Source of the DNA: an uncultured Gammaproteobacteria bacterium | GTDB taxonomy: Bacteria > Patescibacteriota > Patescibacteriia > UBA9934 | Assembly (NCBI GenBank): GCA_964401485.1 | Contig: CAYNYL010000003.1 | Location: 18,365-82,364, forward strand | Direction of reading: 5' to 3' | DNA length: 64,000 bases | In this document: piece by piece, positions 15,134 through 62,900 of the stretch | How positions within the stretch are numbered: the stretch's first letter is position 1 | How the letters are laid out: each line of letters opens with the position of its first letter | Program-made: the position numbers and the translations under genes | Notes under the pieces: model-generated | What the model saw: the letters and a program-made list of their open reading frames with translations, nothing else | Told to the model about the DNA's origin: nothing | The model's database searches: none

Positions 15134-15151
15134 ATATAACAAGAGGCGCCC

Positions 15152-15185
15152 TTTGCGGGCGTCTTTTGTGTTTTGGCGGGGTGAG
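15152..15185 (+). terminator. Putative intrinsic terminator after the helicase gene
   Basis: GCGCCC-tttgc-GGGCGT hairpin followed by CTTTTGTGTTTTGG. Confidence 0.45.
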
Positions 15186-15322
15186 GGTCTCCCGGGTGAA
15201 GGAGGGGATGTGGTCACAGATGTTGTAAAAACATGCAAATTTCCCAACAAAACAGGGCATATTTTTAAGATCTGTGACCGCATGGTCGGTTTGAACAGGA
15301 GGGATATACCAGGGATCTGTAT

Positions 15323-15351
15323 TTGACGGCGCGGGTAAAAAATGCTATATT
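15323..15351 (+). promoter_or_regulatory. Promoter (TTGACG-17-TATATT, extended -10 TGC) upstream of 15484
   Basis: tTTGACGgcgcgggtaaaaaatgcTATATTg. Shares aatgctatatt with the DGR target promoter. Confidence 0.5.
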
Positions 15352-15454
15352 GTAAGGTCGCACTTTGCGATAGGAGGTGAGCCATGATCCACATGACGTA
15401 GCGAGCGCATTTACCGTCAGCGCGCTCCAAACGTAAGAGCATGAGGCTCCCATG

Positions 15455-15472
15455 TTGGTGCGCATGCACCAA
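15455..15472. promoter_or_regulatory. Perfect 18-bp palindrome TTGGTGCGCATGCACCAA between the promoter and RBS, candidate operator
   Basis: Exact inverted repeat 12 nt upstream of the AGGAG RBS and the ATG at 15484. Confidence 0.4.
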
Positions 15473-15483
15473 CAGGAGACCTA

Positions 15484-15858
15484 ATGATCTACATCCATCA
15501 AGTTCAGTGTCACGCCCTCGAGGAATTCTCGGCGGGATTCGAAGCCCTTCCCAAGTCGCGGGCGTACTGGTTACGCCACGAGCTTAGGGAGAAGGTGCGC
15601 GAGGTAACTCTTGAGCGAACGGATCCGTATCCGTGCATCGAGGACTTCGTCCTTGCGTCCCTCGTTCCGGAGTGCGAAGCGTCCTGCTACGCATTCGCAA
15701 ACGGGACGGGGGTCGGTATCACCGTTCGGTACAGCGATGCGGAACTCGCGCAGATTGACGAGGCGCTTCTGTGGCGACTCCGACTTCTGCGAAAAGTACC
15801 GCTCAATCTCTGTCCGGAGTGGTGGATGGTGCGCGATACCATCCTGACGCTCACGTAA
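15484..15858 (+). CDS. Hypothetical GC-rich protein (124 aa)
   Basis: ORF with an AGGAG RBS, GC3-biased codons, and Cys pairs (CHALEE...CIEDF...CEASC). No assignable family. Confidence 0.5.
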   Translation: MIYIHQVQCHALEEFSAGFEALPKSRAYWLRHELREKVREVTLERTDPYPCIEDFVLASLVPECEASCYAFANGTGVGITVRYSDAELAQIDEALLWRLRLLRKVPLNLCPEWWMVRDTILTLT

Positions 15859-15907
15859 ACCTCGCCCCACCGACGAACATCCCATCGATGTGTCGGTGGG
15901 GTGTTTG

Positions 15908-16816
15908 TTATTCGGGCTTTACGATTTTGGCGATGAAAAATCCTTCGGATTGTTCTGACGGGAGGACGGTAATTGTTTGATTGGCGGTCTTGCGGGCGTT
16001 TGCGATTTGGGGGTCGATCGGTGACGACTTGAGTTCGGGAAATTCTGATAATAGCCAGGAGATCATTTCTTCATTTTCCTCGGGGGCAAGGGTGCAAGTC
16101 GAATAGACGAGGGTCCCGCCTGGTTTAAGTACCTGGACGGCGCCACGTAATAGACGCCGTTGAAGTTTCGCATGTGTTGCGATATTTTTTTCATTCCAGA
16201 ATTTGTAGGACCGAGGATCATGCAAATTAATCCGGCCTTCGGCGGAACAGGGAACATCCGCAAGGATTTTATCGAAGCGGAGGTCGGTGTGTTTCGTCCA
16301 AAGAGTTGCATCGGTGTGAATCGCGGTGACGCTTGTGGCGCGTTGTACCTTTAAGCTATTTTCAAGGCGCTCGAAACGAATCACGTTTTCCTCGAGCGCA
16401 GCGATATGCGCTTGGTTCCCGGTGAGACTCGCGATCTGCGTCGTCTTACTTCCAGGTGCTGCGCAAAGATCAAGAATCGTCTCGCCTGGCTTTGGATCAA
16501 GAATAAGGGGCGGGATCATTGAAGAAAGGCCCTGGAGATAGATCGCTCCGGATTTTGCGAGAGGATGCGCGAGGAGTTCTTGGCTCGTTCGATTTTTAAT
16601 ACGAAACGCATGTGGAATATCCTTTACGCGCTCGAACTGGATCGCGCTTTCGCGAAGCGCACCCATAACCGCGTTGTCGTTTGATTTAAGCGTATTAACC
16701 CGAAAACTCGGCAGGCGCTCGGTATCGAATGCCCGAAGTATTTGTGTAAATATTGAAAGGCCAAACTGCCGTTTTAGGCGCTCGGCGAGAGGCTCTGGAA
16801 GGGAGGGGCGTGCCAC
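15908..16816 (-). CDS. RsmB/RsmF (NOL1/NOP2/Sun) family rRNA m5C methyltransferase, catalytic domain only
   Basis: ILDLCAAPGSKTTQIA (SAM-binding) and DVPCSAEGRI (catalytic PC and TC regions). Confidence 0.8.
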   Translation of the reverse strand: MARPSLPEPLAERLKRQFGLSIFTQILRAFDTERLPSFRVNTLKSNDNAVMGALRESAIQFERVKDIPHAFRIKNRTSQELLAHPLAKSGAIYLQGLSSMIPPLILDPKPGETILDLCAAPGSKTTQIASLTGNQAHIAALEENVIRFERLENSLKVQRATSVTAIHTDATLWTKHTDLRFDKILADVPCSAEGRINLHDPRSYKFWNEKNIATHAKLQRRLLRGAVQVLKPGGTLVYSTCTLAPEENEEMISWLLSEFPELKSSPIDPQIANARKTANQTITVLPSEQSEGFFIAKIVKPE

Positions 16817-16855
16817 ATTGATTCGTTAACGTGATTAGTATATCATAGGGCAACT

Positions 16856-17785: not shown

Positions 17786-17786
17786 T

Positions 17787-18554: not shown

Positions 18555-18560
18555 TAAAAA

Positions 18561-18592
18561 ACCCGGGGTGTGAGCCTCGGGTTTTTTTGTTA
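18561..18592. terminator. Bidirectional intrinsic terminator (CCCGGGG-tgtga-CCTCGGG with T-run)
   Basis: 7-bp stem with one G.U pair followed by TTTTTTTG. Sits between convergent genes. Confidence 0.65.
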
Positions 18593-18596
18593 TGAG

Positions 18597-19085: not shown

Positions 19086-19206
19086 ATGAGTTAAGAATTA
19101 AGCAATGCACGGGAGTCGTCGGGATATTTTCAGAGTGCGCGCTCCAAGAAGTCCCGAATCCGTCCTCGTCTTGCATTTAGAATGTACCTCGCGCGCCATG
19201 AAGGAA

Positions 19207-20863: not shown

Positions 20864-20903
20864 GGGCCCATCCTAGCCGAAAATCAATGAAGAAACAATG
20901 AAG

Positions 20904-21389: not shown

Positions 21390-21402
21390 AGTGGATAAAG
21401 GA

Positions 21403-21430: not shown

Positions 21431-21437
21431 AGGGGAT

Positions 21438-21710: not shown

Positions 21711-21711
21711 T

Positions 21712-23877: not shown

Positions 23878-23878
23878 T

Positions 23879-27218: not shown

Positions 27219-27941
27219 CTAACGGACGTCCTTGAAGGCGGACTGGAGCAAGCCCTGTAAGGCGATCGCGATGTTCGAGGCGAGCTCCTCTCTGCGCGCT
27301 GGGTCTTTGCGTAGTGAGGCGTGGATCTCGAGTTGGACCGCATCGAGTCCCGCCTCGCCGTACTTGTACCCGAATGACCGGACGATGTACCCACCTCGAA
27401 AACTACTCTTCACGCCGAGCATCTCATCGGGCGAGTAGGCGATCGTGTAGTCGGTTTTCAGTGGGGCGGCGAGGAGGTAGTCGAGGTGGTTTGGCGCCGT
27501 TCGGCCCTGATCCGTCCCAAAGATCAGTTGCAACCCTCGAGGCGTTGTCGTTGGTTCGTTCGCAAATCCGTGGATGTCGAGCAAGAACGCGAATCCGTGG
27601 TTACGGATTGTGCGTTCGATCTGGGCGGAGAGAACTCCGTGGTACTCGCGCCAACTTCCCTCGAACCCCTCGACCCATGCCTGCGGGCCGGGCTTGCGAT
27701 TCGGGTCGGCGTGCCGTCGATCAAGGGTGAAGCTGACAAGCGTCGGAGTGATCTCTCGCTTGTGAAGTTCTTCCATGACCGAGAACGTGAGTTCTCGCGT
27801 ATGGTCGTCGAGCCCGGTTCCTCCCTCCGCAATCCACTTTGCGACATGCGGGAGAATTGGCTTGTCATCGAATCTCTCCGTCCCATCGTGCGGAACGGAC
27901 AGGACGATCGGGCACGAGCCCTCTAAAAGAACGGTATGCAT
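27219..27941 (-). CDS. N-formylglutamate amidohydrolase (FGase)-family zinc hydrolase, GC-rich
   Basis: LSVPHDG near the N-terminus and AFLLDIHGF resemble the FGase PHxG/LLDLHS motifs. Confidence 0.5.
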   Translation of the reverse strand: MHTVLLEGSCPIVLSVPHDGTERFDDKPILPHVAKWIAEGGTGLDDHTRELTFSVMEELHKREITPTLVSFTLDRRHADPNRKPGPQAWVEGFEGSWREYHGVLSAQIERTIRNHGFAFLLDIHGFANEPTTTPRGLQLIFGTDQGRTAPNHLDYLLAAPLKTDYTIAYSPDEMLGVKSSFRGGYIVRSFGYKYGEAGLDAVQLEIHASLRKDPARREELASNIAIALQGLLQSAFKDVR

Positions 27942-27989: not shown

Positions 27990-28475
27990 TTAGTTCAATT
28001 CGGCGATGTATGGGGCAAGGGTTTCATTGCCCGTTAAAAAATATTCCGCAACGATCTCGCACTGTTCTTCGATATCATATTCACGAAAGGATTTTGCCTC
28101 GTCGAAATTGACCGAGTAGGCGTTACGTTCGGTTAGTGTTTCTAAAAGCGCTCGTGGAATATAGCCAAGGCCAAAATTCTGATATTGCCAAATATGACAG
28201 CCTTCATGTACTAGGAGCGCTTGCTTTTTTAGGGTATCGGCCTCCCAGTGTCTTGGAAATGTAATCGTATTACCGATCGTCAGCCCTGGATAAATGATCA
28301 TTAGGATTCCACCGTGCTTAATCCGCACCTCGTCGTAATTAATGCTCTCGCCATACAGTTTTTCCAAAATCGTGCGCTCCCCATCCGTTAGTGTTCGTCG
28401 ATTGATAAACATCGGCACAAAAATGATCGAAAATGCTATACACCCTGTAAGTAAAGCGACGATAAATTTCCGCAT
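27990..28475 (-). CDS. Membrane-anchored putative zincin-like metallopeptidase (HExxH)
   Basis: N-terminal TM. LLVHEGCHIWQYQ carries an HExxH motif. Confidence 0.4.
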   Translation of the reverse strand: MRKFIVALLTGCIAFSIIFVPMFINRRTLTDGERTILEKLYGESINYDEVRIKHGGILMIIYPGLTIGNTITFPRHWEADTLKKQALLVHEGCHIWQYQNFGLGYIPRALLETLTERNAYSVNFDEAKSFREYDIEEQCEIVAEYFLTGNETLAPYIAELN

Positions 28476-28573
28476 AGTTGATTGAGCTTATCCTAGCATA
28501 ATCAATCGAAATTCGCATGGAGGCAGTCACCAACTAAAGCATGAAGACCGCCGGGAGGGCGGTCTTACGTAGG

Positions 28574-29071
28574 CTAGTGCGTCGTGCGACGCGGAGGTCC
28601 CATCGGGACGGTGATGCCGAGAAGGATTCCGGCGCCACCACCGGCCATCAAAAGATTGCCGGTCATGGCGTATGGCTCGAGGTCGTGGCGGTACTGCCAC
28701 TGTTCGAGCTCGGAGAGCGTGGTGGCCTCGGCGCGGTACTTGAGCTGGGCGCTGGCCGAGAGGGCAAGGCCCGTGATGAACGCGGCGCCGGAGACGGCCG
28801 TGACGACGCGGTTCGTTCGGCCTATCCGGTACGGCTCGCTTTCGGGGCCGACCTCGACGAGGCGGGGGACGAGCGCCCAGTCTTCGCTGGCGCAGATCAC
28901 GGTCCTTCCGGTCCAAGCCACCGTTTCACCCGTCTCGAGTTGCTGGACGGCCGGTTCGAGCTGGAGCTCGGGACTCGCGAGGGCTGGGGTGGCGAAGAAC
29001 ACGGAAAGGAGCGTGACGAACAGATAAGCGGGCATGAAAGCTCCAATACTTAGTCTTTGGCGGAATACCAA
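28574..29071 (-). CDS. Hypothetical secreted/membrane protein in a GC-rich island
   Basis: Signal-like N-terminus (MPAYLFVTLLSVFFATPALA) and a C-terminal hydrophobic stretch. The choice of strand and frame among several GC-driven ORFs is uncertain. Confidence 0.35.
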   Translation of the reverse strand: MVFRQRLSIGAFMPAYLFVTLLSVFFATPALASPELQLEPAVQQLETGETVAWTGRTVICASEDWALVPRLVEVGPESEPYRIGRTNRVVTAVSGAAFITGLALSASAQLKYRAEATTLSELEQWQYRHDLEPYAMTGNLLMAGGGAGILLGITVPMGPPRRTTH

Positions 29072-31209: not shown

Positions 31210-31240
31210 ATCCATCGTGGAAACACGGTGGTTTTTTGTT
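31210..31240 (+). terminator. Intrinsic terminator after the tRNA cluster (CCATCGTG-gaaa-CACGGTGG plus T6)
   Basis: 8-bp stem (one U.G) with a GNRA-like loop, followed by TTTTTTG. Confidence 0.6.
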
Positions 31241-31281
31241 GTAAACGAAACACGGCCCGAGGGGGCCGTGTGAGAGGATGC

Positions 31282-32577
31282 CTACCAAAGCGCTTCCACG
31301 AAATCCGCCCAGGGGATTCCGAGTGCGCGACAGGCTTTTTGCGCCTGCATGCGCAGAATGTGCGTGTCAATTTGGTGGGGGTTACTGAAGCGAACCGTTT
31401 TGCCCTTGTGGGAGATCATCGTGTGGTGTGACCGGAACACGAGTGCCCCAAGGCGAACGAATGCGTTCACCGCTTTCCGATACGTGAGGCTGCGAACATA
31501 AAAGGTCTCGCGACGTTCTCTGGTCGCTGGTTCGTGGTTTGCCTCTTCATCCTTATGCTCGGCCCCTTCATCCGAAGCGAAGGTTTCCTCTGGAATATCT
31601 TCAGTTAAGTTTTCCAGGGGATCGCCACGGGGTACGATTTCTCCATCCATGGCCTTTTCGGGCCCAGGCGTTCCAAATACGAGTGCTCCGTCCAGGATTG
31701 CCGACCGGATCAGTTCCTCGGCTGTTTCGAGGAGAAAGTCGTAGAGGTCTTCTACGGCGTAGACCCGGAAGCCTGCTCGAAGACTGTATAGTGGTGAAAA
31801 AATGGAGAGCGTCCGGGTCGTGAGCGAGTAGTTCGCTTGGAAGTGGTATCTCGAGGGTGTCGCGAGATCGAACGTGACAAAGTCGGTACTTACGCCTTCC
31901 TCGGGTGTCACAATGGACCAGCGTACAACACTGCTTACCGCCTCAAAGAACGCATTTGGTTGTTTGTCGTACACTAGACTATCGTTTGCCCGGATGTACT
32001 CTTCCGCGTTTGTACCGGGGAGAAGGTGTGTGCTCGAGAAGCGTCGAAGAAACCGATAGGCTTCATCGCTACGATTCCTGAATCGAGCCCTTTCCTCTTG
32101 CGTCATCCTACTCGTCGTGATGCCGAGGTACTTACAAAAGGTTGCCCAGTTTGTTGATGGATGGCGCTCGGTAGGATCCCAGGTCGGATCGGTGAGTACG
32201 CCGTCTCGAATTGGAGTGTGCGCAATGCTTGCATGCTCGATCAGCATGATGCCGTGGAGGGCAAGCACTCGGTTTTGCGCGGCCACTCGATCGAACCATT
32301 CGTGCAGTACGCGCGAGTCTCTTTCGAGAGATTTTGCGGTACGGTATTTTACACCGGTGATAAGATCATTTGTGAGACCAGCTCCAGCTTCGTCGATTCG
32401 ATCTTCGAACCCATCTGCGCGAAGGATTCTGATCGCTTCGATGAAGTCATCGCTTGAGTCGACGACTTCTTCATATTGGTCCATTCTCGTAAGGATATCG
32501 ATGAACCGCTGACGCGTTTGACGTGAGACGATATTTCGGATGGTAAGGAGCTTTGAAAAGTCCGGTTGACTCGACAT
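31282..32577 (-). CDS. Hypothetical protein (about 431 aa from the internal AGAGG-preceded ATG; the track ORF extends to 32715)
   Basis: Long ORF. Start chosen at MSSQPDF, which has an AGAGG SD. No family recognised. Confidence 0.45.
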   Translation of the reverse strand: MSSQPDFSKLLTIRNIVSRQTRQRFIDILTRMDQYEEVVDSSDDFIEAIRILRADGFEDRIDEAGAGLTNDLITGVKYRTAKSLERDSRVLHEWFDRVAAQNRVLALHGIMLIEHASIAHTPIRDGVLTDPTWDPTERHPSTNWATFCKYLGITTSRMTQEERARFRNRSDEAYRFLRRFSSTHLLPGTNAEEYIRANDSLVYDKQPNAFFEAVSSVVRWSIVTPEEGVSTDFVTFDLATPSRYHFQANYSLTTRTLSIFSPLYSLRAGFRVYAVEDLYDFLLETAEELIRSAILDGALVFGTPGPEKAMDGEIVPRGDPLENLTEDIPEETFASDEGAEHKDEEANHEPATRERRETFYVRSLTYRKAVNAFVRLGALVFRSHHTMISHKGKTVRFSNPHQIDTHILRMQAQKACRALGIPWADFVEALW

Positions 32578-32939
32578 GGTAACCTCTGGGTTGTGAAGGG
32601 ACGGGGTAAAATAATAGTGCAAAAAGGCTTGTTTGTCAACCCAAAACGGGTACAATGAACCTGTAATTCTTAGCCCATTTGTTATGCAATGGTATTCGTA
32701 TTCGCTCGGGGTCACGTCGAGAAATGATATTGAGAACGCTTGCTCGTCGGCCGGAATGTCCTCGTTTTCGCCGGAGATGCCGTTTTATTTCGGGTATCAG
32801 GACGCGCAGGGTCGGCAGGTAAAAGTCGGGCCAGAAGGAATTGAAGACAAAGTGTACATTGGAATTCCAGACGGTGGAGCGATCGCGGTAGAGGAGGCGC
32901 TTCGAGAAGTCGCAGGGGCAATCGGACTTTCGATATAAT

Positions 32940-36501: not shown

Positions 36502-36540
36502 TTTCGGTCCGAGTCATTGTGACGCGGATGTTCGTTTCCA

Positions 36541-37992
36541 TTGGAGGTTGTCATGCATAGAGGCTTGTCCCTGGCCGGTTCGACCGGTCGAAGTGGGATC
36601 TCGCGTCCACGAGTGTCGAGATACTCGCTCGCGTCGAACCCGCCCCCATCGCTCGAAGCGGTTCTTCGAGCGATCCTGGAGAAGGATTGCTTCCGCGACA
36701 GTGGGGCGATTCGCTCCTTCGTGCGGAAAATCGAGCGCACGTACGATGAGAAGGGGCCTGCCGACGACCTCGTGCGGTTTCTCTCGAACGAGGGGTTCAC
36801 TTCGAATGTTGCCGAAGGCATTCGTGTACAGCGTGAGAAGATTCGCGCGCATCTCGGGATGCCTGAGCCGAGCTCGGCGTCGCGATCCTCGCGAGCGATT
36901 CCGATCATCCCGTCGGTTCTCGCCAAGGCGGCAGCCGAAGGGGTGCAGAAGCCGAAGGTCGAGCCCGTCGAGAGTCCCGATAGTCAGTCGGGCGGTAGTG
37001 CCGATGGCGCTACCGTTACAACCCCCACTCACCTGTTCTTCTTCACGCCCGGTGAGTATACAGATTTCGAGTTCGTGCGTGACGCGTTCTTCGACGAGAA
37101 GACGCGTCTCGTAACCGTGCCACTTCGCGACGATACGAAGCCCATTCGGTTGTTCGCCGATCGGCTCGTTGACGCCGGCGTGTGCGCTCCCCTTGATCGT
37201 GGGGAGGGCTCCGCGCAGGGTGAGGTCGCGTACGAGGTGCTCGTATCGTTCAAGGCGTGGCACATCGAGCGGATCTCGGAACGTGCGGATCGTGCCGTGG
37301 CGCCGGAGATCCTCAAGGTCTTCAACGCGCTCCACGAGTACGCCTCGCAGGGCCCGTTTCGCTACGCGGATACGCTCGTCAAGCAGATCGCGGAGCGTTT
37401 CGAGATGAAGGAGGGGACCGTTCGAAGTGTCTTCTTCGGCTTCCGGGAACAGCCACTCGTCAGCGAGCCGCACAAGCGACTAGGGGCATTCCTGATCCTC
37501 GACCGTTCGGCACGTGAACAGACGGTCGTCGTGTGCGTCAAGGGTTTCGAGGGCCATCGGTTGGTTCCCGGAACGCAACGGTTTGTGACGAGGAGTCACA
37601 CGGTGCGGTCCACTCCGGCCATTCCCCGATCGGCAAATCCGGTAGTGTCACCTGCGCCGGTCGTCGAATCGGACGACACTGTGGAAGACGAGGGGACGTC
37701 GACGCCGGAACTCGGGCGCCTTCTCGAGGCGCGCCCCGACGTGCGTGAGGCCATCACCGAAGAGGCACTCGCGATTGCGGATCGGATCCGGTCCGGTGGG
37801 GAGCGTACCTATACTCTCGCCGAACTCGTCGAGCGTCGTCGAGTTCTCCTTGGAGGGATCGCCACCCTCAACGAGTTGATCGCTGAGAAGGAGCGCGAGA
37901 TCCGCGAGGAGGAGGCCCGTCTCGAGCGCGAGGAAGCCGAGCTTCTCGCGAGACTCGAGGCCGTTCGTGCGAGGAAGGCGAAGCTCGAGTAG
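36541..37992 (+). CDS. Hypothetical GC-rich protein with C-terminal coiled coil (483 aa)
   Basis: Strong promoter and RBS. GC3-biased. C-terminal EKEREIREEEARLEREEAELLARLEAVRARKAKLE. Several overlapping antisense ORFs were judged spurious. Confidence 0.55.
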   Translation: MEVVMHRGLSLAGSTGRSGISRPRVSRYSLASNPPPSLEAVLRAILEKDCFRDSGAIRSFVRKIERTYDEKGPADDLVRFLSNEGFTSNVAEGIRVQREKIRAHLGMPEPSSASRSSRAIPIIPSVLAKAAAEGVQKPKVEPVESPDSQSGGSADGATVTTPTHLFFFTPGEYTDFEFVRDAFFDEKTRLVTVPLRDDTKPIRLFADRLVDAGVCAPLDRGEGSAQGEVAYEVLVSFKAWHIERISERADRAVAPEILKVFNALHEYASQGPFRYADTLVKQIAERFEMKEGTVRSVFFGFREQPLVSEPHKRLGAFLILDRSAREQTVVVCVKGFEGHRLVPGTQRFVTRSHTVRSTPAIPRSANPVVSPAPVVESDDTVEDEGTSTPELGRLLEARPDVREAITEEALAIADRIRSGGERTYTLAELVERRRVLLGGIATLNELIAEKEREIREEEARLEREEAELLARLEAVRARKAKLE

Positions 37993-49956: not shown

Positions 49957-50940
49957 CTATTGCTTTTTGGCCCGCAAAAGGCGCTTCAGGACCCGCTTGA
50001 ACCACTTCTCGACGGTCAGGCCCTTGCTGTTGAGGACGAGATCGAAGACGAAGTGGACAAAGGTCGGCAAGCTGACGCGGTCAAGGCTCAAGTCGAGTGG
50101 GTTCACGACGCGATGCGTCGTGGGTGCGATCTTGAGTCCGAGCGCCGCGAGTCGCTCGACTACGATCTCGAAGGCGGCGAGCATCATGCCGGTGTTGATG
50201 GCGACGACGTCGGCTCCTTCCGGAATCACGATCCCGCCCCAGACTCTCCGCTTCATGCCGCGACGCGGCAGGAAGAGTTCGAGATCTCTGACGACGGGGA
50301 GTACGGTGAGGACGTTGATGTCTTCGTGCTTCGCGGAGCGTACCGAGCCGGGCTTGACGTTCGGGTACTTGTCGAGGGCCGGGTAGTAGATCGCACGGAA
50401 CACCGTCTCGGCGCCGTAGATCGCATTCGTGAGCAGGCCTCGTTCGAGCTTGAGGAAGACCTCGAAGCACGCGAGAACGCGCTCGCTGACCGCGATCGTT
50501 TGGCGCAGGTACTCAAGCGCGAGATCCTTGAACTCAGACACTTCCTTCGGGAAGATGTTCGGACCGTACACCCAGTTCGCGGGATTCAGGGGGTTGCGCT
50601 CATCGCGCACCATCCAGAATTCCTTGAGATCGGGGCAGTCACTACTTGCTGCGATCTCGCTTCCGTACTCGGCGAAACCGCGTTGCCTCAAGCCATCGAG
50701 GGCGATGTACTGCATCAGGGTGAGGCGCGGAAGCGCCATGACTTTGCGAAAGGCCCTCTCGGTATCGTTGATCAGGGTACGGTCGATCTTGTGGTTTTCT
50801 ACCAGGAGGAATCCATCCTGGCACACGGCACGGACGACCTGTTCACATCGCTCTTCGTTTCCAGGCGCCCACGGGTCGTCGGGAAGGTTGACGACCTGAA
50901 TTTCGTGTTGGAATACGGCGTTTGCTCGGGGAGCGACCAA
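49957..50940 (-). CDS. 2OG-Fe(II) oxygenase superfamily protein (isopenicillin N synthase-like), GC-rich
   Basis: DIOX_N-like N-terminus and KHEDINVLTVL (an HxD Fe-binding motif). The start codon is uncertain, apparently TTG. Confidence 0.6.
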   Translation of the reverse strand: MVAPRANAVFQHEIQVVNLPDDPWAPGNEERCEQVVRAVCQDGFLLVENHKIDRTLINDTERAFRKVMALPRLTLMQYIALDGLRQRGFAEYGSEIAASSDCPDLKEFWMVRDERNPLNPANWVYGPNIFPKEVSEFKDLALEYLRQTIAVSERVLACFEVFLKLERGLLTNAIYGAETVFRAIYYPALDKYPNVKPGSVRSAKHEDINVLTVLPVVRDLELFLPRRGMKRRVWGGIVIPEGADVVAINTGMMLAAFEIVVERLAALGLKIAPTTHRVVNPLDLSLDRVSLPTFVHFVFDLVLNSKGLTVEKWFKRVLKRLLRAKKQ

Positions 50941-51035
50941 GTAACACCTCTCGGCTAGGGTTAAAGGAACCGGGCAAAGTCTATCAAATGGGGATAAAAT
51001 CCGCCAGGAGGAAGGAAAGTCGCTATACTGATTCT

Positions 51036-56411: not shown

Positions 56412-56427
56412 GGTATACTTTCGGTAT

Positions 56428-57261: not shown

Positions 57262-57812
57262 AGCTCCGAGGCCTTACGGCCTCGGTATCTTCTTACAAAA
57301 CAAGCTTCGCTTGTCCGCTCTCCTCCTTGCCTTGGTGTTCTATGTAGGCCTTGATTTGTCGTTCATTTACTCCGACCGTCGACAGGAAGTAGCCGTCACT
57401 CCAGAAGGCGATTTTCTTGCCATACATCGTCTCTACCGCAGGAAACTTCTTTTGCATCACACGGGAGCTATTTGACTTAAGGATGTTAACGGCTTTCGAG
57501 ATACTCCACTTTGGTGGGATAGACATGAGGAGGTGAACATGATCTACATCCGTGTTTGCCTCAAGGAGCATAAGGTCAGGATAGTTTTTGCAGATGCGGT
57601 GGAAGATCCCAATGCAGTACGCTCCCATGTGATGTTTTAGTACGTGGCGTCGATACTTCGTGACGAACACAAGGTGGTAGCGAGTGTAGTAAACAGCCTG
57701 AGCCTGGCGACGATATTCCATACACCTTGGAGCCTAGCACGAAAGACAAGGCGCGTCGTCGAGCGGAGAAGAGGAAGACACGAGGCCTTACGGCCTCGGT
57801 TTTCTTGTAAAT
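57262..57812 (-). mobile_element. IS200/IS605-family element (tnpA only), bounded by near-identical subterminal hairpins
   Basis: CCGAGGCCTTACGGCCTCGG at 57266..57285 and CGAGGCCTTACGGCCTCG at 57781..57798, in the same orientation. Each is followed by a similar tail of about 20 nt. Confidence 0.6.
57293..57721 (-). CDS. tnpA: IS200-like HUH Y1 transposase TnpA
   Basis: YHLVFVTKYRR and DHVHLL are the HUH and catalytic-Tyr context motifs. 142 aa. Confidence 0.85.
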   Translation of the reverse strand: MEYRRQAQAVYYTRYHLVFVTKYRRHVLKHHMGAYCIGIFHRICKNYPDLMLLEANTDVDHVHLLMSIPPKWSISKAVNILKSNSSRVMQKKFPAVETMYGKKIAFWSDGYFLSTVGVNERQIKAYIEHQGKEESGQAKLVL

Positions 57813-57814
57813 AA

Positions 57815-57840
57815 AAAGCACCGCCTTTCGGCGGTGTTTT
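57815..57840 (-). terminator. rpmB terminator (CACCGCC-tttc-GGCGGTG followed by a T-run on the minus strand)
   Basis: Perfect 7-bp hairpin right after the rpmB stop. Confidence 0.6.
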
Positions 57841-57841
57841 C

Positions 57842-58075
57842 TTAGACCATGAGGAGGGTTCGGAGGTCGAAGACCTTTCCGTCCTTCTGCCATTTTGCGA
57901 GAGTTCGCATTCCACGTGTCGAGATCATCACGGTTTCCATGATTCCCGTAGCAGGATTCATCATCCGCTTTTTGTGGAGGTTTGGCATCTGTCGGCGCTT
58001 CACCTTGCGGTTTGAGTGGCTGACGTGGTTGCCGGTAAGTGGCGTTTTTCCAGTTAGTTTGCAAATTTTTGACAT
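57842..58075 (-). CDS. rpmB: 50S ribosomal protein L28
   Basis: [33 protein letters not shown] matches the L28 N-terminus. Confidence 0.85.
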
Positions 58076-58187
58076 AAAAATCGTTCGGGGGAAGTGTACG
58101 GGATTTCTTATATTTCGTCAAGGTTCAGGGAAAAGAGAGCACCCCCGCTCATTCGAGACGGGGGTGCGAGACGTGGGAAGCGAACCT

Positions 58188-59057
58188 CTAGATCAAAACG
58201 GTTGCGTGACCGTAGAAGTCCCGGCGATTGTCGTACGCTGTGTCAGTAAGGGTCACCATTGCGTCTTTACGTCCCGTAACCAGGACGGGTACGTGGTCGT
58301 GTGGCATGGGGCTCGTTCCTGCGGGAAACAGGACTCCAAGTAGCGGGATCGATGGGGCATCTGCCTCTCGACGCCAGTGAATCCATTCCGGGTGCTGTGA
58401 AGCGGCGTATAGCACCTCGAGCCAACTGTGTAGCGTGGGGTTGAGCGCGAGGTCGCCGATTTGTGTCCGGTGGGAGGTGTTTCCAAAGCACACTTTCCGA
58501 ATCGAGAGGGTGTTTGGCACGAACCTCGATTCGGGCATGCTTGGGTTGAGAGCGAGGTCTTCACTCCTCTGCCAAGGATCTCGGGTGTGAAGTAGACTCG
58601 GGTACGTTTCGAGAAACGATTCCCCCCAGCACTTTGAGATCAGGCCAACCGCATATCGATACGTCTCGGTGAGCGTACCGAGCGTCCGAACGATTACCGG
58701 AGTCGCGCACTTCTCGTCGCATTCACCGGTGATCGAAATGCGTGAAGCGGCAAACTGGTATCGATCGCGCATCCGATCAATGTCCTCGCCCCCTACTCCT
58801 TCGTAGTTCCGGACGGTTTGGATAAGATCGTCAAGCGGAGTCCAGCGTCCGTGGACGGCGCGAAACGAGGGTATGGTTCTCGTGAGCTTGAACATGCGTT
58901 CCGCAATGTCAGCTCTATTTGCGATGAGACCGACCATATCGCCGTCGAAGCCCGCGGCCTCGAGTTTGCGTTCGAATTGGTCCCAAGTACCTTTCGGCAC
59001 CTCTGCGAATCGGCGGGCCATGGCGGCGGGCCTCCCTCTGTTGTCACGGGCGGGCAT
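58188..59057 (-). CDS. Hypothetical GC-rich protein (289 aa)
   Basis: GGGAGG RBS, with a TTGACT-17-GATGAT promoter upstream at 59110..59138. No family recognised. Confidence 0.5.
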   Translation of the reverse strand: MPARDNRGRPAAMARRFAEVPKGTWDQFERKLEAAGFDGDMVGLIANRADIAERMFKLTRTIPSFRAVHGRWTPLDDLIQTVRNYEGVGGEDIDRMRDRYQFAASRISITGECDEKCATPVIVRTLGTLTETYRYAVGLISKCWGESFLETYPSLLHTRDPWQRSEDLALNPSMPESRFVPNTLSIRKVCFGNTSHRTQIGDLALNPTLHSWLEVLYAASQHPEWIHWRREADAPSIPLLGVLFPAGTSPMPHDHVPVLVTGRKDAMVTLTDTAYDNRRDFYGHATVLI

Positions 59058-59209
59058 TCTTTACAGCACTATGCTGATTGAACGCGGGCCTAATTGGCGT
59101 GACGGAAAAATCATCCTTGGAAAATGGTAAAAAGTCAATATAAACAAAAGCCCCGACCAATCGAGCTGTCTCGAAGGTCGGGGACGGGTAGGGGGCGGGC
59201 GGGCCGGCT

Positions 59210-59779
59210 CTAGGGGATCACCCACCTTGAGCTACGCTGGTTCCCGATCTGGACGACGATCCCGCGCGATTCGAGCTCACGAAGGATGGCCAGTGTCTCC
59301 GGGTACGGGTGGTCGATCGTTTTCGCGATGGCCGATCCCGAAAGCCCGAGGGCGTCTTTGATCAAGAGATCGACGATCTGTGTTTCGTGGTCGGGGGGCT
59401 TGACCTTGAGGACGAACTTTTCGCGAATCGCGAAGAAGCTCTGCCGTCCCTCGATCGTATCGAACTGGCCGCGACCCGAGGCCTTGATCGCCTCTTGGAT
59501 CGCGGTTCGCGCGATGAAGATGTCGAGCGCTTCTCGCACGTCTTCCTCAAGCGCGTTCGTCAGCTGATTCTGCGCGTTCATGCACAGAAGGTCGTCGAGA
59601 ACCGGGAACAGCCTTGCGACGAACTCGTCAAGAAGGCAGGCCTTCTTGACCGTCGTCCTGACAAAGAGCGCACGAAGCGCTCCATCAGCAACCATTCTAC
59701 GAAGGACGGCAGCTGATTGTGGGAATGCTGTGAGAGCAATCCCGCAAACGCCGTCGACCGTATGGGCGTTGTGAATCAT
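59210..59779 (-). CDS. Hypothetical GC-rich protein with C-terminal winged-HTH-like tail
   Basis: Start re-anchored to MIHNAHT (AGGAGG RBS, TTGACT-17-TAGTTT promoter at 59809..59837). C-terminal LGLSGSAIAKTIDHPYPETLAILRELESRGIVVQIGNQRSSRWVIP resembles a wHTH. Confidence 0.45.
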   Translation of the reverse strand: MIHNAHTVDGVCGIALTAFPQSAAVLRRMVADGALRALFVRTTVKKACLLDEFVARLFPVLDDLLCMNAQNQLTNALEEDVREALDIFIARTAIQEAIKASGRGQFDTIEGRQSFFAIREKFVLKVKPPDHETQIVDLLIKDALGLSGSAIAKTIDHPYPETLAILRELESRGIVVQIGNQRSSRWVIP

Positions 59780-59867
59780 TGATTCCTCCTGTCCAAAAGG
59801 GACCAGATAAACTACCATAAATCACCGAAAAAGTCAATGTTTACGAGGTGTGGTAAAATCGAGCTAC

Positions 59868-61973
59868 ATGAAAGAGTACGTATTACAGCCAAGCGCTCCA
59901 AAGAACCTAAAGATTGATTATGAGCGGGAGCTCAACGCTGAGCAATTTGCCGTTGTGCGAGACGGGGACGGAATGGCTCTTGTTCTTGCTGGGGCGGGGT
60001 CGGGGAAGACGAGGACAATTGTCTACCGAGTTGCCTGGCTTCTCGAGCACGGGGTAGCGCCAAGCGAAATCCTGCTTTTGACGTTTACGAACCGTGCAGC
60101 GCACGAAATGGTTGAGCGGGTTGAAGCGCTTCTTGGGTTTTATCCGGAAGGGCTTTGGGCGGGAACATACCATTCGATCGCAAATCGTCTCCTTCGACGG
60201 TATGCCGACGCGATTGGGTTTCAATCGAATTTTTCGATTCTTGACCAAGAGGATGCTCGGGACTTGATTGCGATGTGCGTAAAAGAATGTGGCGTTGATA
60301 CGACGGGAAAGCGATTCCCGAAATCGACCGTACTTCAATCGATCATTTCCTATTCGCGCAATAGTCGCGCGGGGATCTCGGATACGCTTGAGAAAATGCA
60401 TCCGAAATTCCTTCCGATTCGAAGTGAAATCGAACGGGTGGCGGATCGGTATCGCGACCAAAAGCGTCTCCAAAACGCGATGGATTTTGACGACCTTCTC
60501 GTCCTTCTTCTTGAGCTCTTAACAACAAATCCTGGAATCGCGGAGGTGCTTTCAACGGGATTTCGCTATATTCTCGTCGATGAGTTCCAGGATACGAATA
60601 GCATTCAGGCGGATATCGTAAAGATTTTGGCGCGGGTCCATGAAAATCTTCTCGTGGTTGGCGATGATGCTCAAAGCATCTATTCATTCCGAGCGGCGGA
60701 TATTGCGAATATCCTTGATTTTCCAAAACAGTACGAGCATGTGGCCGTTTATCGTCTTACGATGAATTACCGTTCGACTCCGCAGATTCTTTCGATTGCT
60801 AACTCGGTTATTGCAAATAATACGAAGCAGTTTGAAAAAGAGTTACAATCTATGGCTGGGGGTGGGGCAAAGCCTGAGATGATCCCGACCTCAAGTAGTC
60901 GACAAGAGGCGGAGTTTATTGCGCAAAAGATTTTGGATCTTCGTAACGGCGGGGTTGAGTTAAACGAGATTGCCGTTCTTTTCCGCGCGACCTACCATTC
61001 ACAATCACTCGAATTTGAACTCCTAAAGCGCGACATCCCGTACGATTATCGAGGCGGGCTTCGTTTCTTTGAGCGGTCGCATATTAAAGACGCGGTGGCG
61101 CATGTTCGTATCGCGGAGAACATGAAGGATTTGACCGCCTGGTCGCGTATTCTTCGTATCCACCCTGGGCTCGGGCTTGCTGGCTCGGTAAAGATTGCCG
61201 AAGAGGCATCTCGTTACGATTCGCTTCCAGAGTTTTTTGCGCTCTACGCCCCGAAGGGAAAGCGTGCACAGGCGGGTTTTGCGGGCGCAAAACGGATTTG
61301 CGAGAAAATGCTTCTCGCGGGCGGGACGCCAAGCGAGCGAATTCGGGCGATCGCTTCAAGCGACGATTACCGCGCCTACCTTGAAATGACCTTCCCGAAT
61401 TTCGAGGAGCGAATCGAGGATATCGAGCAATTCGCCCTTTTTGCGGAACAATTTACCGATGCCGAAACATTCCTTGCGACGATCTCGCTTACCGATGAAT
61501 GGGGTGCCGGGTCGCAAAAGCCGGCCTTTGAAGAGGCGCGTGTCGTTCTTTCGACCATCCACCAGGCGAAGGGTCTCGAGTGGCGGGCAGTCTTTGTTAT
61601 GCATCTTGCCGAGGGGATGTTCCCACACTCACGCGCCTACGAAGACGAAGCGCAGATGGAGGAGGAGCGTCGACTCTTTTACGTCGCGGTGACGCGCGCT
61701 CGCGAGAATCTCTATTTAAGTTATCCGGTCACGGCGGGAATGGATCGTGTCGAAATTTGTCAGCCGTCGACGTTTCTCGAAGAGATTCCTTCGCGCCAGA
61801 TTGAAGAAGTTCGGCTTAAATCGGCGCCAAGTTACCAATCGCCGTATAAATCCTTCCACAAGCCAACAACCGATTCTTGGGAGGAGCCTGTGATCGTCCT
61901 AAATGAATTAGGTGATAAAATGGAAGAGCGCCCTATGCCTAAATCATTTTTACGGGGCGGTGACGATTTCTAA
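59868..61973 (+). CDS. UvrD/PcrA-family superfamily 1 DNA helicase
   Basis: LNAEQFAVV, Walker A AGAGSGKT, DEFQDTN, and further SF1 motifs. The start may be the upstream GTG at 59850. Confidence 0.85.
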   Translation: MKEYVLQPSAPKNLKIDYERELNAEQFAVVRDGDGMALVLAGAGSGKTRTIVYRVAWLLEHGVAPSEILLLTFTNRAAHEMVERVEALLGFYPEGLWAGTYHSIANRLLRRYADAIGFQSNFSILDQEDARDLIAMCVKECGVDTTGKRFPKSTVLQSIISYSRNSRAGISDTLEKMHPKFLPIRSEIERVADRYRDQKRLQNAMDFDDLLVLLLELLTTNPGIAEVLSTGFRYILVDEFQDTNSIQADIVKILARVHENLLVVGDDAQSIYSFRAADIANILDFPKQYEHVAVYRLTMNYRSTPQILSIANSVIANNTKQFEKELQSMAGGGAKPEMIPTSSSRQEAEFIAQKILDLRNGGVELNEIAVLFRATYHSQSLEFELLKRDIPYDYRGGLRFFERSHIKDAVAHVRIAENMKDLTAWSRILRIHPGLGLAGSVKIAEEASRYDSLPEFFALYAPKGKRAQAGFAGAKRICEKMLLAGGTPSERIRAIASSDDYRAYLEMTFPNFEERIEDIEQFALFAEQFTDAETFLATISLTDEWGAGSQKPAFEEARVVLSTIHQAKGLEWRAVFVMHLAEGMFPHSRAYEDEAQMEEERRLFYVAVTRARENLYLSYPVTAGMDRVEICQPSTFLEEIPSRQIEEVRLKSAPSYQSPYKSFHKPTTDSWEEPVIVLNELGDKMEERPMPKSFLRGGDDF

Positions 61974-61975
61974 CT

Positions 61976-62572
61976 ATGCGCTATATTACAAGCCATCGAC
62001 AGGTAAAGCGTGCACGGTTTCAAACATATGCAGTGCTTAGTATTGTCGTTTCAGCGTTCGCGATCGTTGTCGTAACGGCACTGCTCTTTAAAAGTTTGCG
62101 AGGCGGGGATAGCGCGGACGCGATTGTGGCGGACCCGGCGGACGAGACCGAGAACGAAGTCGCGACGACGGTGGCGGTGGCGGAAGAGCCTGTTCCCGAG
62201 GTCGTCGTGGCGGAAAAACCCTTCGAAGAAATTACGCTTGGTCCGGCGCCGAGCTATGACGGATTTTCGGGAATTGCACGACGCGGGAGGGAAGGGGATC
62301 TTTATACGCACGTCATTGTTGCGTCCCTTCCTCCAATCGATTCTGCCACGAGCTACTATGAGGCTTGGCTTGTAAAGCCGGGTGTGACCGGATTTTTATC
62401 GGCGGGCGATTTTTTTCCAAGGCAGGATGGAAAATGGGGTCTTCTTTTTGAACAAACGGTTGCGGAGGCTCCGATTGATATTGATGAGTATACGAATGTC
62501 ATCGTGACGATTGAGGCGCGAGACGAGAATCCGGCACCGTCCCCAACACACGTCCTTCGGGGGAGCTTCTAA
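61976..62572 (+). CDS. Membrane-anchored protein with RskA-like (anti-sigma-K C-terminal) domain, putative
   Basis: Single N-terminal TM. YYEAWLVKPGVTGFLSAGDFFPRQDGKWGLLFEQ fits the anti-sigma factor C-terminal domain pattern. Confidence 0.4.
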   Translation: MRYITSHRQVKRARFQTYAVLSIVVSAFAIVVVTALLFKSLRGGDSADAIVADPADETENEVATTVAVAEEPVPEVVVAEKPFEEITLGPAPSYDGFSGIARRGREGDLYTHVIVASLPPIDSATSYYEAWLVKPGVTGFLSAGDFFPRQDGKWGLLFEQTVAEAPIDIDEYTNVIVTIEARDENPAPSPTHVLRGSF

Positions 62573-62624
62573 AACAAAACGCGGGAACATCTTTCGATGT
62601 CCCCGCAGACGCCTGCCCCGGCTT

Positions 62625-62900
62625 CTATTCGCGCCGGTAGCGGACGTACTCCGCATCCGCGAGTCTGTCATCCGGCACGAATCTCGTTCCGGTGATGTGG
62701 TTCATGGCATCGAGTACGTCATTGATCTCGACGTTGGCCTCGAGTTTCAGCTTGTCGTCGTGACCGTGCCAGAGCACGGTGTCGTAGGTGCCGGCTTCGT
62801 TTCGCCGACTCATCGACACGAGATTGCGTTTCGGTTCGAATGTGATCAACCGGACGTTGGTCAGCCCCTCCGCCATGGTTTCTAGCAACTCGTCGAGCAT
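62625..62900 (-). CDS. Hypothetical GC-rich small protein (91 aa)
   Basis: TTGACTTTTT-type promoter at 62936..62963. No family assigned. Confidence 0.4.
   Translation of the reverse strand: MLDELLETMAEGLTNVRLITFEPKRNLVSMSRRNEAGTYDTVLWHGHDDKLKLEANVEINDVLDAMNHITGTRFVPDDRLADAEYVRYRRE

Follow-up and report, generated by a model that had tools for sequence, protein, structure and literature searches.

The nine GC-rich genes of a 64,000-nucleotide stretch of bacterial DNA, here called the window, are best read as a class of flexible or hypervariable genes with high GC, set apart by their composition, by the anatomy of their units, by their variability between close relatives (five of the nine compared) and by a diversity-generating retroelement (DGR) that targets one of them. 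Their GC-richness, chiefly a matter of codons ending in C or G, appears to belong to the gene class as such, and related genes in other CPR genomes, of 35-49% GC, show it again. We think it fairly probable that these genes form a flexible, fast-evolving class of a CPR genome, the units of which are exchanged within the gene pool of the clade. The source genome is small and is that of an uncultured, Peregrinibacteria/Peribacteria-like member of the CPR; the best matches of its TypA were CPR genomes.

By this reading, the units sit in spacers between conserved core genes as autonomous transcription units, and from one close relative to the next they are gained, lost or exchanged for highly divergent alleles, next to flanking genes that are almost unchanged. 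The exchange may proceed by recombination in a pool common to related CPR lineages, and the codon usage of such a pool would be like that of GC-rich members of the clade; the units would not be imports from distant high-GC phyla. Against the shared pool, a donor allele was found nowhere in the searches made.

Composition of the nine genes

The window, with a GC content of 51.45%, was curated by hand to 66 genes, and all per-gene composition ranks are based on this set. The nine genes that a sequence-only reading had singled out as high in GC and biased in GC3, referred to below as islands, are precisely ranks 1-9 of the 66 for GC and also for GC3. Island GC ranged from 0.576 to 0.651 and island GC3 from 0.648 to 0.827 (n=9), while the other genes had a mean GC of 0.504 (sd 0.028, max 0.559) and a mean GC3 of 0.538 (sd 0.048, max 0.633). 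Per-gene statistics, which the reading had named as the deciding check, do separate the islands from the core (Mann-Whitney p = 9e-7 for GC, likewise for GC3), in a test that is post hoc because the genes had been picked by eye. GC2 did not differ between islands and other genes (p = 0.06).

When GC3 was fitted with an unsupervised mixture, two components beat one (BIC -129 vs -116) and eight of the nine islands were recovered, with 58188-59057 as the borderline case; the binomial z of island GC3 was 3.7-9.0. For total GC, two components were not favoured over one (BIC -198.2 vs -198.6), and the separation of the islands therefore lies chiefly at third codon positions. Mean GC was 0.42-0.48 over the 100 nt 5' of the start codon, 0.56-0.63 within the gene, and back to 0.45-0.52 from ~50 nt past the stop codon. 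The rise begins with the start codon and stops shortly past the stop codon. Four long antisense ORFs, a feature also pointed out earlier, lie in the islands at 9728-10351 (-), 28541-29053 (+), 36514-37473 (-) and 49960-50958 (+). Independent assemblies from three sequencing runs contain the islands at 100% identity, which ruled out an assembly artefact as their source.

Most islands had been described as hypothetical, and seven of the nine have no Pfam match. The other two are the only products that had been recognized, an FGase-like hydrolase of the N-formylglutamate amidohydrolase family (gene 3, 27219..27941, minus strand, 240 aa; PF05013, E = 1.4e-14; GC 0.593, GC3 0.718) and a 2OG-Fe(II) oxygenase-like protein (gene 6, 49957..50940, minus strand, ~327 aa; 2OG-oxygenase N-terminal domain DIOX_N, E = 6.5e-12; GC 0.599, GC3 0.787). 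Gene 4 (28574..29071, ~165 aa with an approximate start codon, no family; GC 0.651, GC3 0.789) was placed on the minus strand by its GC3 > GC1 > GC2 pattern, and the version with one candidate start had no match in the protein collection. By eye, its product has an N-terminal hydrophobic leader and a hydrophobic segment at the C-terminus.

The base-composition-normalised dinucleotide signature (Karlin delta*) placed the islands at a distance of 124 from the core, while random core subsets differed from the remainder by 34 +/- 11 (max 70). A composition and signature so unlike the core would suit ordinary recent transfers out of unrelated organisms of high GC, such as the host bacterium of this episymbiont, with donor composition kept. 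We nevertheless consider such transfers improbable, and the codons are one reason. Leucine in the islands is dominated by CTC (CTC 0.54, CTG 0.15; island C3 0.417), as it is in the resident genome, while distant high-GC phyla typically favour CTG. Both CTC-dominated leucine and C3 > G3 are common to the islands, the core and the GC-rich same-clade relative L006 (CTC 0.55, CTG 0.21; C3 0.494), and the island codon dialect resembles that of the clade's GC-rich members. The genome of Ca. Peribacter riflensis has 58.5% GC (PMC4736985). Against a GC-rich variable class, however, stands the delta* of 105 between the islands and the sole GC-rich relative tested, a distant signature.

The DGR unit and its GC-rich target

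The unit at 9578-12223 is predicted to be a complete DGR with a variable repeat (VR), a template repeat (TR), a protein like the accessory variability determinant (Avd) and a reverse transcriptase (RT). Gene 1 (9776..10399, plus strand, 207 aa; GC 0.631, GC3 0.827) encodes the putative variable (target) protein; the sequence-only reading rightly counted it among the nine, although it lies outside the range of 15140-62900 over which the pattern had been placed. The VR, at about 10292-10397 (+), occupies the 3' end of the gene and runs to the stop codon, and the TR is at 10726..10831 (+), with 17 of its 30 adenines substituted in the VR. Over 106 nt, the pair agrees at 87 positions, and of its 19 mismatches 17 fall at TR adenines and 2 elsewhere; no further VR for this TR was found within the window. 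The bAvd-like accessory protein (10836..11237, minus strand, opposite to the RT; 133 aa, GC 0.470) matched PF22296 with E = 3.4e-9 and 37.6 bits against a 40-bit cut-off. The reverse transcriptase (11238..12224, plus strand, 328 aa; RVT_1, E = 3.4e-22) has the lowest GC of any gene in the window (0.417), and its relatives (45-62% identity) adjoin A-mutated TR/VR pairs. About 50 nt past the VR lies a 13-bp GC-rich hairpin (10450..10479, +), either a terminator or an inverted repeat; a GC-rich inverted repeat following the VR has been described for DGRs (PMC5758913). A single-sequence AlphaFold model of gene 1 had a pLDDT of 39.8, too low to assign the C-type lectin or Ig fold that displays the VR in DGR variable proteins. 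By eye, the C-terminal sequence of gene 1 is like small targets in L109 and L112.

Target and RT of this one cassette differ by 0.41 in GC3, and such opposite composition inside a single unit argues against foreign transfer. The closest related DGRs repeat the contrast of GC-rich target and AT-rich RT in backgrounds of 35-49% GC. Target GC was 0.608 against a background of 0.327 in L112, 0.592 against 0.440 in L117 and 0.60 against 0.47-0.48 in L114 and L115, and in the closest related targets the GC-richness extends to the non-VR parts. The gap and its recurrence are also what a locus-specific force might produce, that is, a force that keeps the islands GC-rich irrespective of donor composition. 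Candidates are GC-biased gene conversion (gBGC) at often-recombining loci and selection that favours adenine-poor codons ending in G or C where a gene is hypervariable or the target of a retroelement. This explanation is possible, though we rate its chances as low: the targets of distant DGRs are not GC-rich, and the island shift of +0.2 GC3 looks larger than that known for bacterial gBGC.

DGRs are common in CPR (PMC5758913), and gene 1 is like the targets of their cassettes in being a bona fide target that has a VR and is accompanied by a TR, an RT and a candidate Avd; the difference is that a single island out of the nine is tied to a TR within the window. The same survey noted atypical GC for whole DGRs only and does not mention an excess of the target over its own RT in GC3.

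Unit anatomy and variability between close relatives

In promoter/terminator and hairpin scans, an island was a self-contained single-gene unit with its own sigma-70-type promoter-like site and hairpin terminator. The claim that each island has its own promoter was confirmed by a promoter-like site upstream of each gene. The islands are flanked by typA, the atp operon, uvrD, rsmB and an RND efflux-pump gene. The exact 10-mer TTGACTTTTT occurred four times in the window, each time just upstream of an island gene (9776-10399, 58188-59057, 59210-59779 and 62625-62900), and was absent from the rest of the window; the promoter form with this 10-mer is near-consensus. The site of gene 1 (9612..9640, +) reads TTGACT-17 nt-TATATT, with TG before the second hexamer, and includes TTGACTTTTT; over ~50 nt, this promoter shares roughly 80% identity with that of an unrelated GC-rich gene on another CPR contig, L089. 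Gene 2 has TTGACG-17-TATATT at 15323-15351 (+). The 10-mer promoter of gene 8 is at 59828-59837 (-), a position that supports the earlier coordinates of that gene, 59210-59779, and that of gene 9 is at 62954-62963 (-), upstream of 62625-62900, with a terminator at 62580-62607 (-) in the terminator scan. The island promoters are of the type native to this lineage, which again argues against foreign transfer.

We compared the window with two relatives, in which five of the nine islands were comparable (9776, 15484, 36553, 58188 and 59210). Three of the five (9776, 15484 and 58188) were absent from a relative as precise single-unit indels. The relative L107 (GCA_964491425.1) has 8 nt in place of the whole DGR unit 9578-12223, and 17 nt in place of 15315-15923, which consists of promoter, 5'UTR, gene and terminator of gene 2 (15484..15858, plus strand, 124 aa, no family; GC 0.584, GC3 0.704). 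Strain L088 (~96% identical) is without 58165-59190, the unit of upstream hairpin, TTGACTTTTT promoter and gene 7 (58188..59057, minus strand, 289 aa, rare family). The indels are unpolarised, and each could be a gain or a loss. Precise indels against close genomes would also fit foreign transfer. The earlier proposal of single-gene acquisitions thus holds for at least three single-unit gains or losses, but not for import from a high-GC donor.

Among 42 comparable genes, four of the five islands were variable, compared with four of the 37 others (Fisher p = 0.0029), so that the presence/absence survey suggested by the reading shows a strong enrichment of the five comparable islands among variable genes. 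Variable genes with ordinary or low GC also exist, namely an IS200 transposase, a 477-aa gene and several L105-specific genes; they speak both against a GC-rich variable class and against a locus-specific force.

Gene 5 (36553..37992, plus strand, 479 aa, no family; GC 0.628, GC3 0.73) lies between typA and the atp operon, and its start was corrected from 36541. In the same slot, the relative L105 has a 482-aa gene (GC 0.647, GC3 0.816) with 34.6% protein identity (E = 4e-52), while the neighbouring TypA and AtpA are 98.8% and 99.0% identical. The homology is collinear along the protein, and nucleotide similarity returns at 37695, with a conserved 3' end. Gene 5 is therefore a putative hypervariable positional homologue with two alleles. 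A GC-rich positional homologue in a second genome is difficult to reconcile with foreign transfer. For a locus-specific force it counts in favour, since two alleles with 35% identity, a divergence at which saturation of synonymous sites is expected, both have a high GC3 (0.73 and 0.82) in ~50% GC genomes.

Gene 8 (59210..59779, minus strand, 189 aa, no family) differed from its counterpart in strain L088 by 0.0985 nonsynonymous codon differences per codon, compared with 0.0028 for the adjacent UvrD, 0 for AtpD and 0-0.011 for five core genes. Its amino-acid divergence is ~35x that of its neighbours, and at synonymous sites it diverges 2.5-5 times as much as UvrD and AtpD. The gene has equal GC in both strains (0.586 here, 0.589 in L088), and its AT<->GC differences are balanced (22 vs 20). 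The equal GC and the raised synonymous divergence would again be consistent with a locus-specific force, as would the higher GC3 that genes which recombine have in most bacteria studied (PMC4450053).

Two homologues of gene 7 are likewise GC-rich single genes (0.573 vs 0.33-0.50 in L089; 0.667 vs 0.43-0.55 in L092). The family member in L093, not GC-rich against the short flanking stretch compared, is an exception that counts against a GC-rich variable class. The gene 7 protein had weak matches to the C-type-lectin fold.

Donor searches and known systems

The sequence-only reading had considered an accessory pool from a high-GC donor. We found no donor lineage or close homologue for the three island proteins searched (genes 5, 6 and 7), and its other suggestion, a distinct gene class, fits better than donor import while falling short of proof. 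Among 5.8 billion proteins, the 479-aa protein of gene 5 matched only itself; the word-indexed search missed its 35%-identical positional homologue and therefore excludes close relatives only. The best matches of the oxygenase in the same collection were 35-36% identical. An exhaustive HMMER search of 1.8 billion representatives returned ten remote relatives of the 289-aa protein of gene 7, at 21-32% identity. The self-match of gene 5, within the reach of that search, and the best oxygenase match of 36% weigh against foreign transfer, while the location of the nearest oxygenase homologues in non-CPR contexts weighs for it.

Phage morons are promoter-gene-terminator units, and the islands are like them in having their own promoter and terminator, in lying between genes that are adjacent in relatives, in being missing from close relatives (three of five comparable islands) and in having a composition unlike their neighbours. 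The islands might accordingly be moron-like cargo of phages or of other CPR mobile elements, or remnants of these. The oxygenase matches phrog_30382 (E = 2e-14), relatives of the DGR RT occur on IMG/VR contigs, and an IS200-like element, itself not GC-rich, lies 470 nt from one island. We consider this origin very improbable, however. No island protein had a match in 50,697 phage genomes, searches of IMG/VR contigs with the 289-aa family, the oxygenase and the 479-aa protein were negative, and PADLOC (anti-phage defence) gave no matches. Phage integrase, structural and replication genes were not seen near the islands; unlike morons, the islands lie among chromosomal housekeeping genes, not in a prophage.

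The islands share a deviant composition and a variable presence (three of five comparable islands) with classical genomic islands, but not the mobility genes, flanking repeats, tRNA sites or identifiable donor (three of nine proteins searched). No integrase was seen in the window, no tRNA gene adjoins an island, and the sole flanking direct repeat is that of the IS200-like element. Flexible-genome islets similarly vary in presence from strain to strain at fixed sites among syntenic core genes, and are atypical in composition and mostly hypothetical in their products; the islands differ in being single genes without integrases or adjoining tRNA genes. Daubin et al. are said to have found in 2003 that ORFans and genes gained by transfer usually have a higher AT content than the host, whereas the islands here are GC-richer. 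Gene 5 is like the hypervariable positional alleles of surface-antigen or specificity loci in its 35% identity amid 99%-identical flanks and its conserved 3' end; it differs in that its variation comes from two alleles. Gene 9 (62625..62900, minus strand, 91 aa, no family; GC 0.576, GC3 0.783) has variants of 97-99% identity in other samples.

Composition and transcription signals of the GC-rich genes

We compiled a list of 66 genes from the ORF table, the Pfam and NCBIfam matches and the gene calls on identical public contigs. Nine isolated genes that a sequence-only reading had singled out as GC-rich (9776-10399, 15484-15858, 27219-27941, 28574-29071, 36553-37992 with its start moved from 36541, 49957-50940, 58188-59057, 59210-59779 and 62625-62900; here called islands) were the top nine of the 66 by GC and by GC3 alike. 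In the window, which has 51.45% GC overall, the GC of the islands was 0.576 to 0.651 and their GC3 0.648 to 0.827 (n=9), while the non-island (core) genes had a mean GC of 0.504 (sd 0.028, maximum 0.559) and a mean GC3 of 0.538 (sd 0.048, maximum 0.633). For these genes chosen by eye, the Mann-Whitney p value was 9e-7 for GC and likewise for GC3; GC2 did not differ between the islands and the other genes among the 66. Since the choice had been made by eye, GC3 was modelled with an unsupervised mixture as well. Two components beat one (BIC -129 vs -116), and the high-GC3 component contained eight of the nine islands, with 58188-59057 borderline. A two-component mixture was not preferred for total GC, indicating that the signal lay mainly at third codon positions. 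The base-composition-normalised dinucleotide signature (Karlin delta*) was 124 for islands versus core, and 34 +/- 11 (maximum 70) for random core subsets. The per-gene composition check named in the sequence-only reading, extended by delta*, therefore separated the islands from the core, and the long antisense ORFs it had described in the islands were found in the ORF table.

The gene for a 479-aa protein (36553-37992) occurred in identical context at 100% identity in assemblies from three separate runs, and the other island proteins present in the protein collection were on two or three contigs each. An assembly chimera was ruled out by the same island context in independent assemblies.

The third positions of the islands were C 0.417, G 0.322, A 0.121 and T 0.140, vs C 0.259, G 0.273, A 0.206 and T 0.262 in the core. 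The shift was mostly from T to C and from A to G, inside the genome's own preferences: leucine was still CTY-dominated (CTC 0.54, CTG 0.15), arginine codon choice was nearly unchanged and NCG codons were still high. The GC-rich relative L006, one of the two nearest genomes by TypA, had the same dialect (CTC 0.55, CTG 0.21, C3 0.494). CTG-type leucine usage is usual in distant high-GC phyla, and the CTC-dominated dialect argues against such donors. Plain import of the islands from distant high-GC donors has little support and appears improbable, which weakens the earlier idea of a high-GC donor pool, since the dialect is that of the resident genome and of L006. Judged by codons, the dialect would fit a pool common to GC-rich relatives, or a force that raises GC in place.

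The GC content stepped up at the start codon and down about 50 nt past the stop, at the terminator hairpin; the hairpin and terminator scans found a stable hairpin after every island. The promoter regions of the islands had a GC of 0.42-0.48. An exact 10-mer, TTGACTTTTT, was present in four copies in the window, with about 0.1 expected, and all four lay 49-164 nt upstream of island starts (9776, 58188, 59779 and 62900). In the scan, a second hexamer followed 16-17 nt after three of the four copies; the copy upstream of 59779 failed. Islands 15484 and 36553 had TTGACG/TTGACA promoters, recognized by eye or scan. Since TTGACTTTTT also precedes ordinary genes in other CPR loci and in metagenome contigs, it is probably a strong promoter of the kind usual in this lineage and not a foreign element, used within the window by islands only. 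The term host-like promoter in the sequence-only reading was therefore fair. An extended TTGACTTTTT pattern occurred on nine metagenome contigs, before ordinary and GC-rich genes, and on no viral contig; a mobile promoter module was ruled out by this ordinary-gene use and by the absence from viral contigs.

The promoter module ACCTTGACTTTTTGGC...TGCTATA(A/T)T...TCCTGT was about 80% identical over about 50 nt between window 9606-9652 and 7811-7857 of L089, a contig with a homologue of the 289-aa protein encoded at 58188-59057. The genes that it fronts are unrelated and belong to separate CPR genomes: the target gene of a diversity-generating retroelement (DGR) in the window and the 289-aa homologue in L089. 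About 180 nt of non-coding sequence (15134-15314) separate the DEAD-box helicase gene from island 15484, in a stretch that aligns at 83.5% identity to L107, a locus of the relative GCA_964491425.1. This block contains the inverted repeat GGTCACAGATG...ATCTGTGACC and could be a small RNA; the Rfam search gave no credible match (best E = 0.039, a mammalian lncRNA model).

The islands in two close relatives

Two useful relatives were reached by exact-protein look-up. One is a close strain (L088), about 96% identical to the window at the nucleotide level. The other is GCA_964491425.1 (loci L107 and L105 of a 40,698-bp contig), with 81-93% nucleotide identity and core proteins mostly 75-99.8% identical.

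Window 58165-59190, which holds the gene 58188-59057 with its promoter and upstream hairpin, was absent from L088, where the neighbour gene runs directly into the hairpin that serves the island gene as terminator in the window. Island 59210-59779 was present in L088, but its protein was only about 90% identical. Per codon, this gene had 0.118 synonymous codon differences and 0.0985 nonsynonymous ones; the corresponding values were 0.048 and 0.0028 for UvrD and 0.024 and 0 for AtpD, and nonsynonymous differences were at most 0.011 per codon in three further core genes. The GC of 59210-59779 was equal in the window and L088, with AT<->GC differences balanced (22 vs 20).

In L107, 8 nt stood in place of window 9578-12223, the entire DGR unit including island 9776-10399, and 17 nt in place of 15315-15923, which comprises island 15484-15858 with its promoter and terminator. 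None of the 15 genes of L107 was a GC-rich outlier. At the junctions, the inserted units lay directly beside resident terminators or stop codons; each may be a gain in the window or a loss in the relative.

In the typA-atp operon slot, L105 carried a 482-aa gene in place of the 479-aa island. The two proteins were collinear homologues with only 34.6% identity (E = 4e-52), while the neighbouring TypA, AtpA and AtpD were 98.8%, 99.0% and 99.8% identical; nucleotide similarity was back over the gene's last 300 nt. The L105 gene had a GC of 0.647 and a GC3 of 0.816 in a 50% GC locus.

We scored a gene as variable when it was absent or below 60% identity. Among 42 comparable genes, four of the five islands and four of the 37 other genes were variable (Fisher p = 0.0029). 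The presence/absence survey proposed in the sequence-only reading thus found three islands absent from relatives and two diverged, over the five of nine islands that were comparable (27219, 28574, 49957 and 62625 fell outside). The variable non-islands were the DGR avd, the DGR RT (reverse transcriptase), the transposase of an IS200-like element and a gene encoding 477 aa. The association runs one way only: each testable GC-rich gene was variable or fast-evolving, and some variable genes were not GC-rich.

The islands are real, self-contained transcription units, variable or fast-evolving wherever testable, and one of them is a DGR target. We favour the reading, reasonably probable as a whole, that they are variable GC-rich units that recombination would exchange inside a gene pool at the level of the clade. 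The main rival holds that a locus-specific force, e.g., GC-biased gene conversion (PMC4450053) or codon selection, keeps the islands GC-rich. It is a more direct account of the two 35%-identical alleles that are both GC-rich, and we regard it as possible, if doubtful.

The lineage showed frequent small indels. At 31239-32647, the 477-aa gene (31282-32715, minus strand, GC 0.524, no Pfam match) adjoins a three-tRNA cluster and is missing from L105. That locus in turn carries genes that the window lacks, encoding proteins of 78, 213 and 182 aa, followed by a NUDIX protein and one of 173 aa. The IS200-like insertion sequence (57262-57832), with the hairpin CGAGGCCTTACGGCCTCGG directly repeated at its flanks, encodes a Y1 transposase (57293-57721, minus strand; PF01797, E = 9.5e-34). 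L088 lacks this element, whose GC of 0.48 is ordinary and which is about 470 nt away from island 58188-59057. A 181-aa ORF at 57576-58121 was spurious: it overlaps rpmB (ribosomal protein L28, 77 aa; 57842-58075, minus strand), and the Ribosomal_L28 gene call at the matching L088 position ruled it out. Between islands 27219-27941 and 28574-29071 lies a 161-aa gene (27990-28475) of unusually low GC (0.436), with no Pfam match and no known variant of at least 90% identity.

Composition contrast within retroelement cassettes

The sequence-only reading had missed the DGR. From its parts, 9578-12223 is predicted to be a complete cassette: the target gene (9776-10399) with the variable repeat (VR, about 10292-10397) at its 3' end, the template repeat (TR, about 10726-10831; a copy 434 nt downstream of the VR), a bAvd-like gene (10836-11237, minus strand; E = 3.4e-9, slightly under the Pfam cut-off) and the RT gene (11238-12224, plus strand; RVT_1, E = 3.4e-22). 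The 106-nt VR-TR repeat had 19 mismatches, 17 of them at TR adenines, so that 17 of the 30 TR adenines were substituted in the VR. No further VR for this TR and no other A-biased repeat pair was found in the window. A structure prediction for the target gave an unusable model (pLDDT 40).

The target had a GC of 0.631 and a GC3 of 0.827, and the RT had the window's lowest values (0.417 and 0.413); the two genes of opposite composition nevertheless lie in one indel relative to L107. The closest RT relatives (45-62% identity) were on IMG/VR contigs. Among contigs with related DGRs, the target in L112 (153 aa, 3612-4073) had a GC of 0.608 and a GC3 of 0.83, where the background values were 0.327 and 0.30; this 35% GC contig is the extreme case, with a sharp GC step about 600 nt wide. 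The target GC was 0.592 vs a background of 0.440 in L117 and 0.60 vs 0.47-0.48 in L114/L115, and the target GC3 in L109 was higher by 0.12 to 0.15. The close RT relatives L110 and L116 and distant DGRs (about 29% RT identity) showed no target contrast. The non-VR parts of related targets were GC-rich as well, indicating that adenine mutagenesis of the VR is not the direct cause of target GC.

Donor composition by itself does not readily account for the contrast between target and RT inside single cassettes, so the data bear on what sets bacterial GC: mutation, gene conversion or selection. A locus-specific force would account for this contrast more directly than exchange within the clade-level pool. 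A broader proposal, speculative and rather unlikely, is that hypervariable 'interaction' genes, DGR variable proteins among them, make up a gene class of their own in the clade, whose G/C-ending, adenine-poor codons would be kept at any background (35-51% GC) by a locus-specific process. This process would be either GC-biased gene conversion at hot spots of recombination or selection connected with mutagenesis by retroelements.

Organism, significance and homologues of the island proteins

The best TypA relatives were in CPR/Patescibacteria genomes that carry the label Peribacteria, Peregrinibacteria or Gracilibacteria. The nearest two TypA proteins (76% and 74%; L005 and L006) came from MAGs deposited as 'uncultured Gammaproteobacteria', a label that is probably wrong, since all next-best TypA matches are CPR. 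The long conserved genes of the window read through with the standard code. Because none of the 80 GTDB loci fetched through TypA, including the nearest genomes, had gene order in common with the window, these loci bear on taxonomy and background outlier rate only and carry no presence/absence information. GC-rich outlier ORFs numbered about 6 in about 900 around typA in these loci, vs 9 of 66 genes in the window. L006 is itself GC-rich (0.58-0.64), and the genome of Ca. Peribacter riflensis has 58.5% GC, with 29% of its genes without database match (PMC4736985).

Islets made of one flexible gene are known, as are moron-like units and the DGRs of CPR bacteria; the islands differ from known islets by their GC-rich bias. 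As a rule, ORFans and transferred genes are richer in AT than their host, and the direction of bias found here, with flexible genes GC-richer than the core, is unusual. Two further unusual points are how tightly GC is linked to hypervariability in this CPR genome and how target and RT contrast inside single DGR cassettes. In the uncultured CPR bacteria, a large share of the genes is without known relatives; a simple composition signal for strain-variable, fast-evolving genes would point to the likeliest host- or phage-interaction proteins, and here it also led to the DGR target. If the broader proposal of a distinct gene class is true, GC3 outliers could be a sequence-only marker of host-interaction or conflict genes in the uncultured bacteria of this clade.

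Valid homologue searches were obtained for three of the nine islands: the 479-aa protein, the 2OG-Fe(II) oxygenase-like protein (49957-50940) and the 289-aa protein. A word-indexed search among 5.8 billion proteins returned the 479-aa protein itself only; the same search overlooked the 35%-identical L105 homologue, so this result excludes close relatives only. The best matches of the oxygenase were 35-36% identical and in non-CPR contexts. PDB sequence searches with three island proteins gave nothing significant. Searches of phage genomes (tblastn), PHROGs, PADLOC and IMG/VR returned nothing informative for island proteins, the oxygenase having one PHROG match of unknown function. That the islands are phage cargo has little support from these phage and IMG/VR libraries and is very improbable.

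Among 1.8 billion representatives, the 289-aa protein matched ten distant relatives, at 21-32% identity. The relative in L089 is a lone GC-rich gene (GC 0.573, GC3 0.654) on a CPR-like contig of 44% GC, and a second, in L092, has a GC of 0.667 with flanks of 0.43-0.55; a third was not GC-rich relative to its short flanks. Counterparts with the same GC excess thus exist in other CPR genomes. Homology of this family to DGR targets was rejected: phmmer found nothing, and hhalign gave N-terminal similarity only, at 9-23% probability, which was not significant. The 3' UTRs of the homologues in L089 (8838-8950) and L092 (1447-1540) both start with TAGGTACTTGG and contain a CTTGG motif that recurs at a spacing of about 15 nt, ahead of the terminator hairpin.
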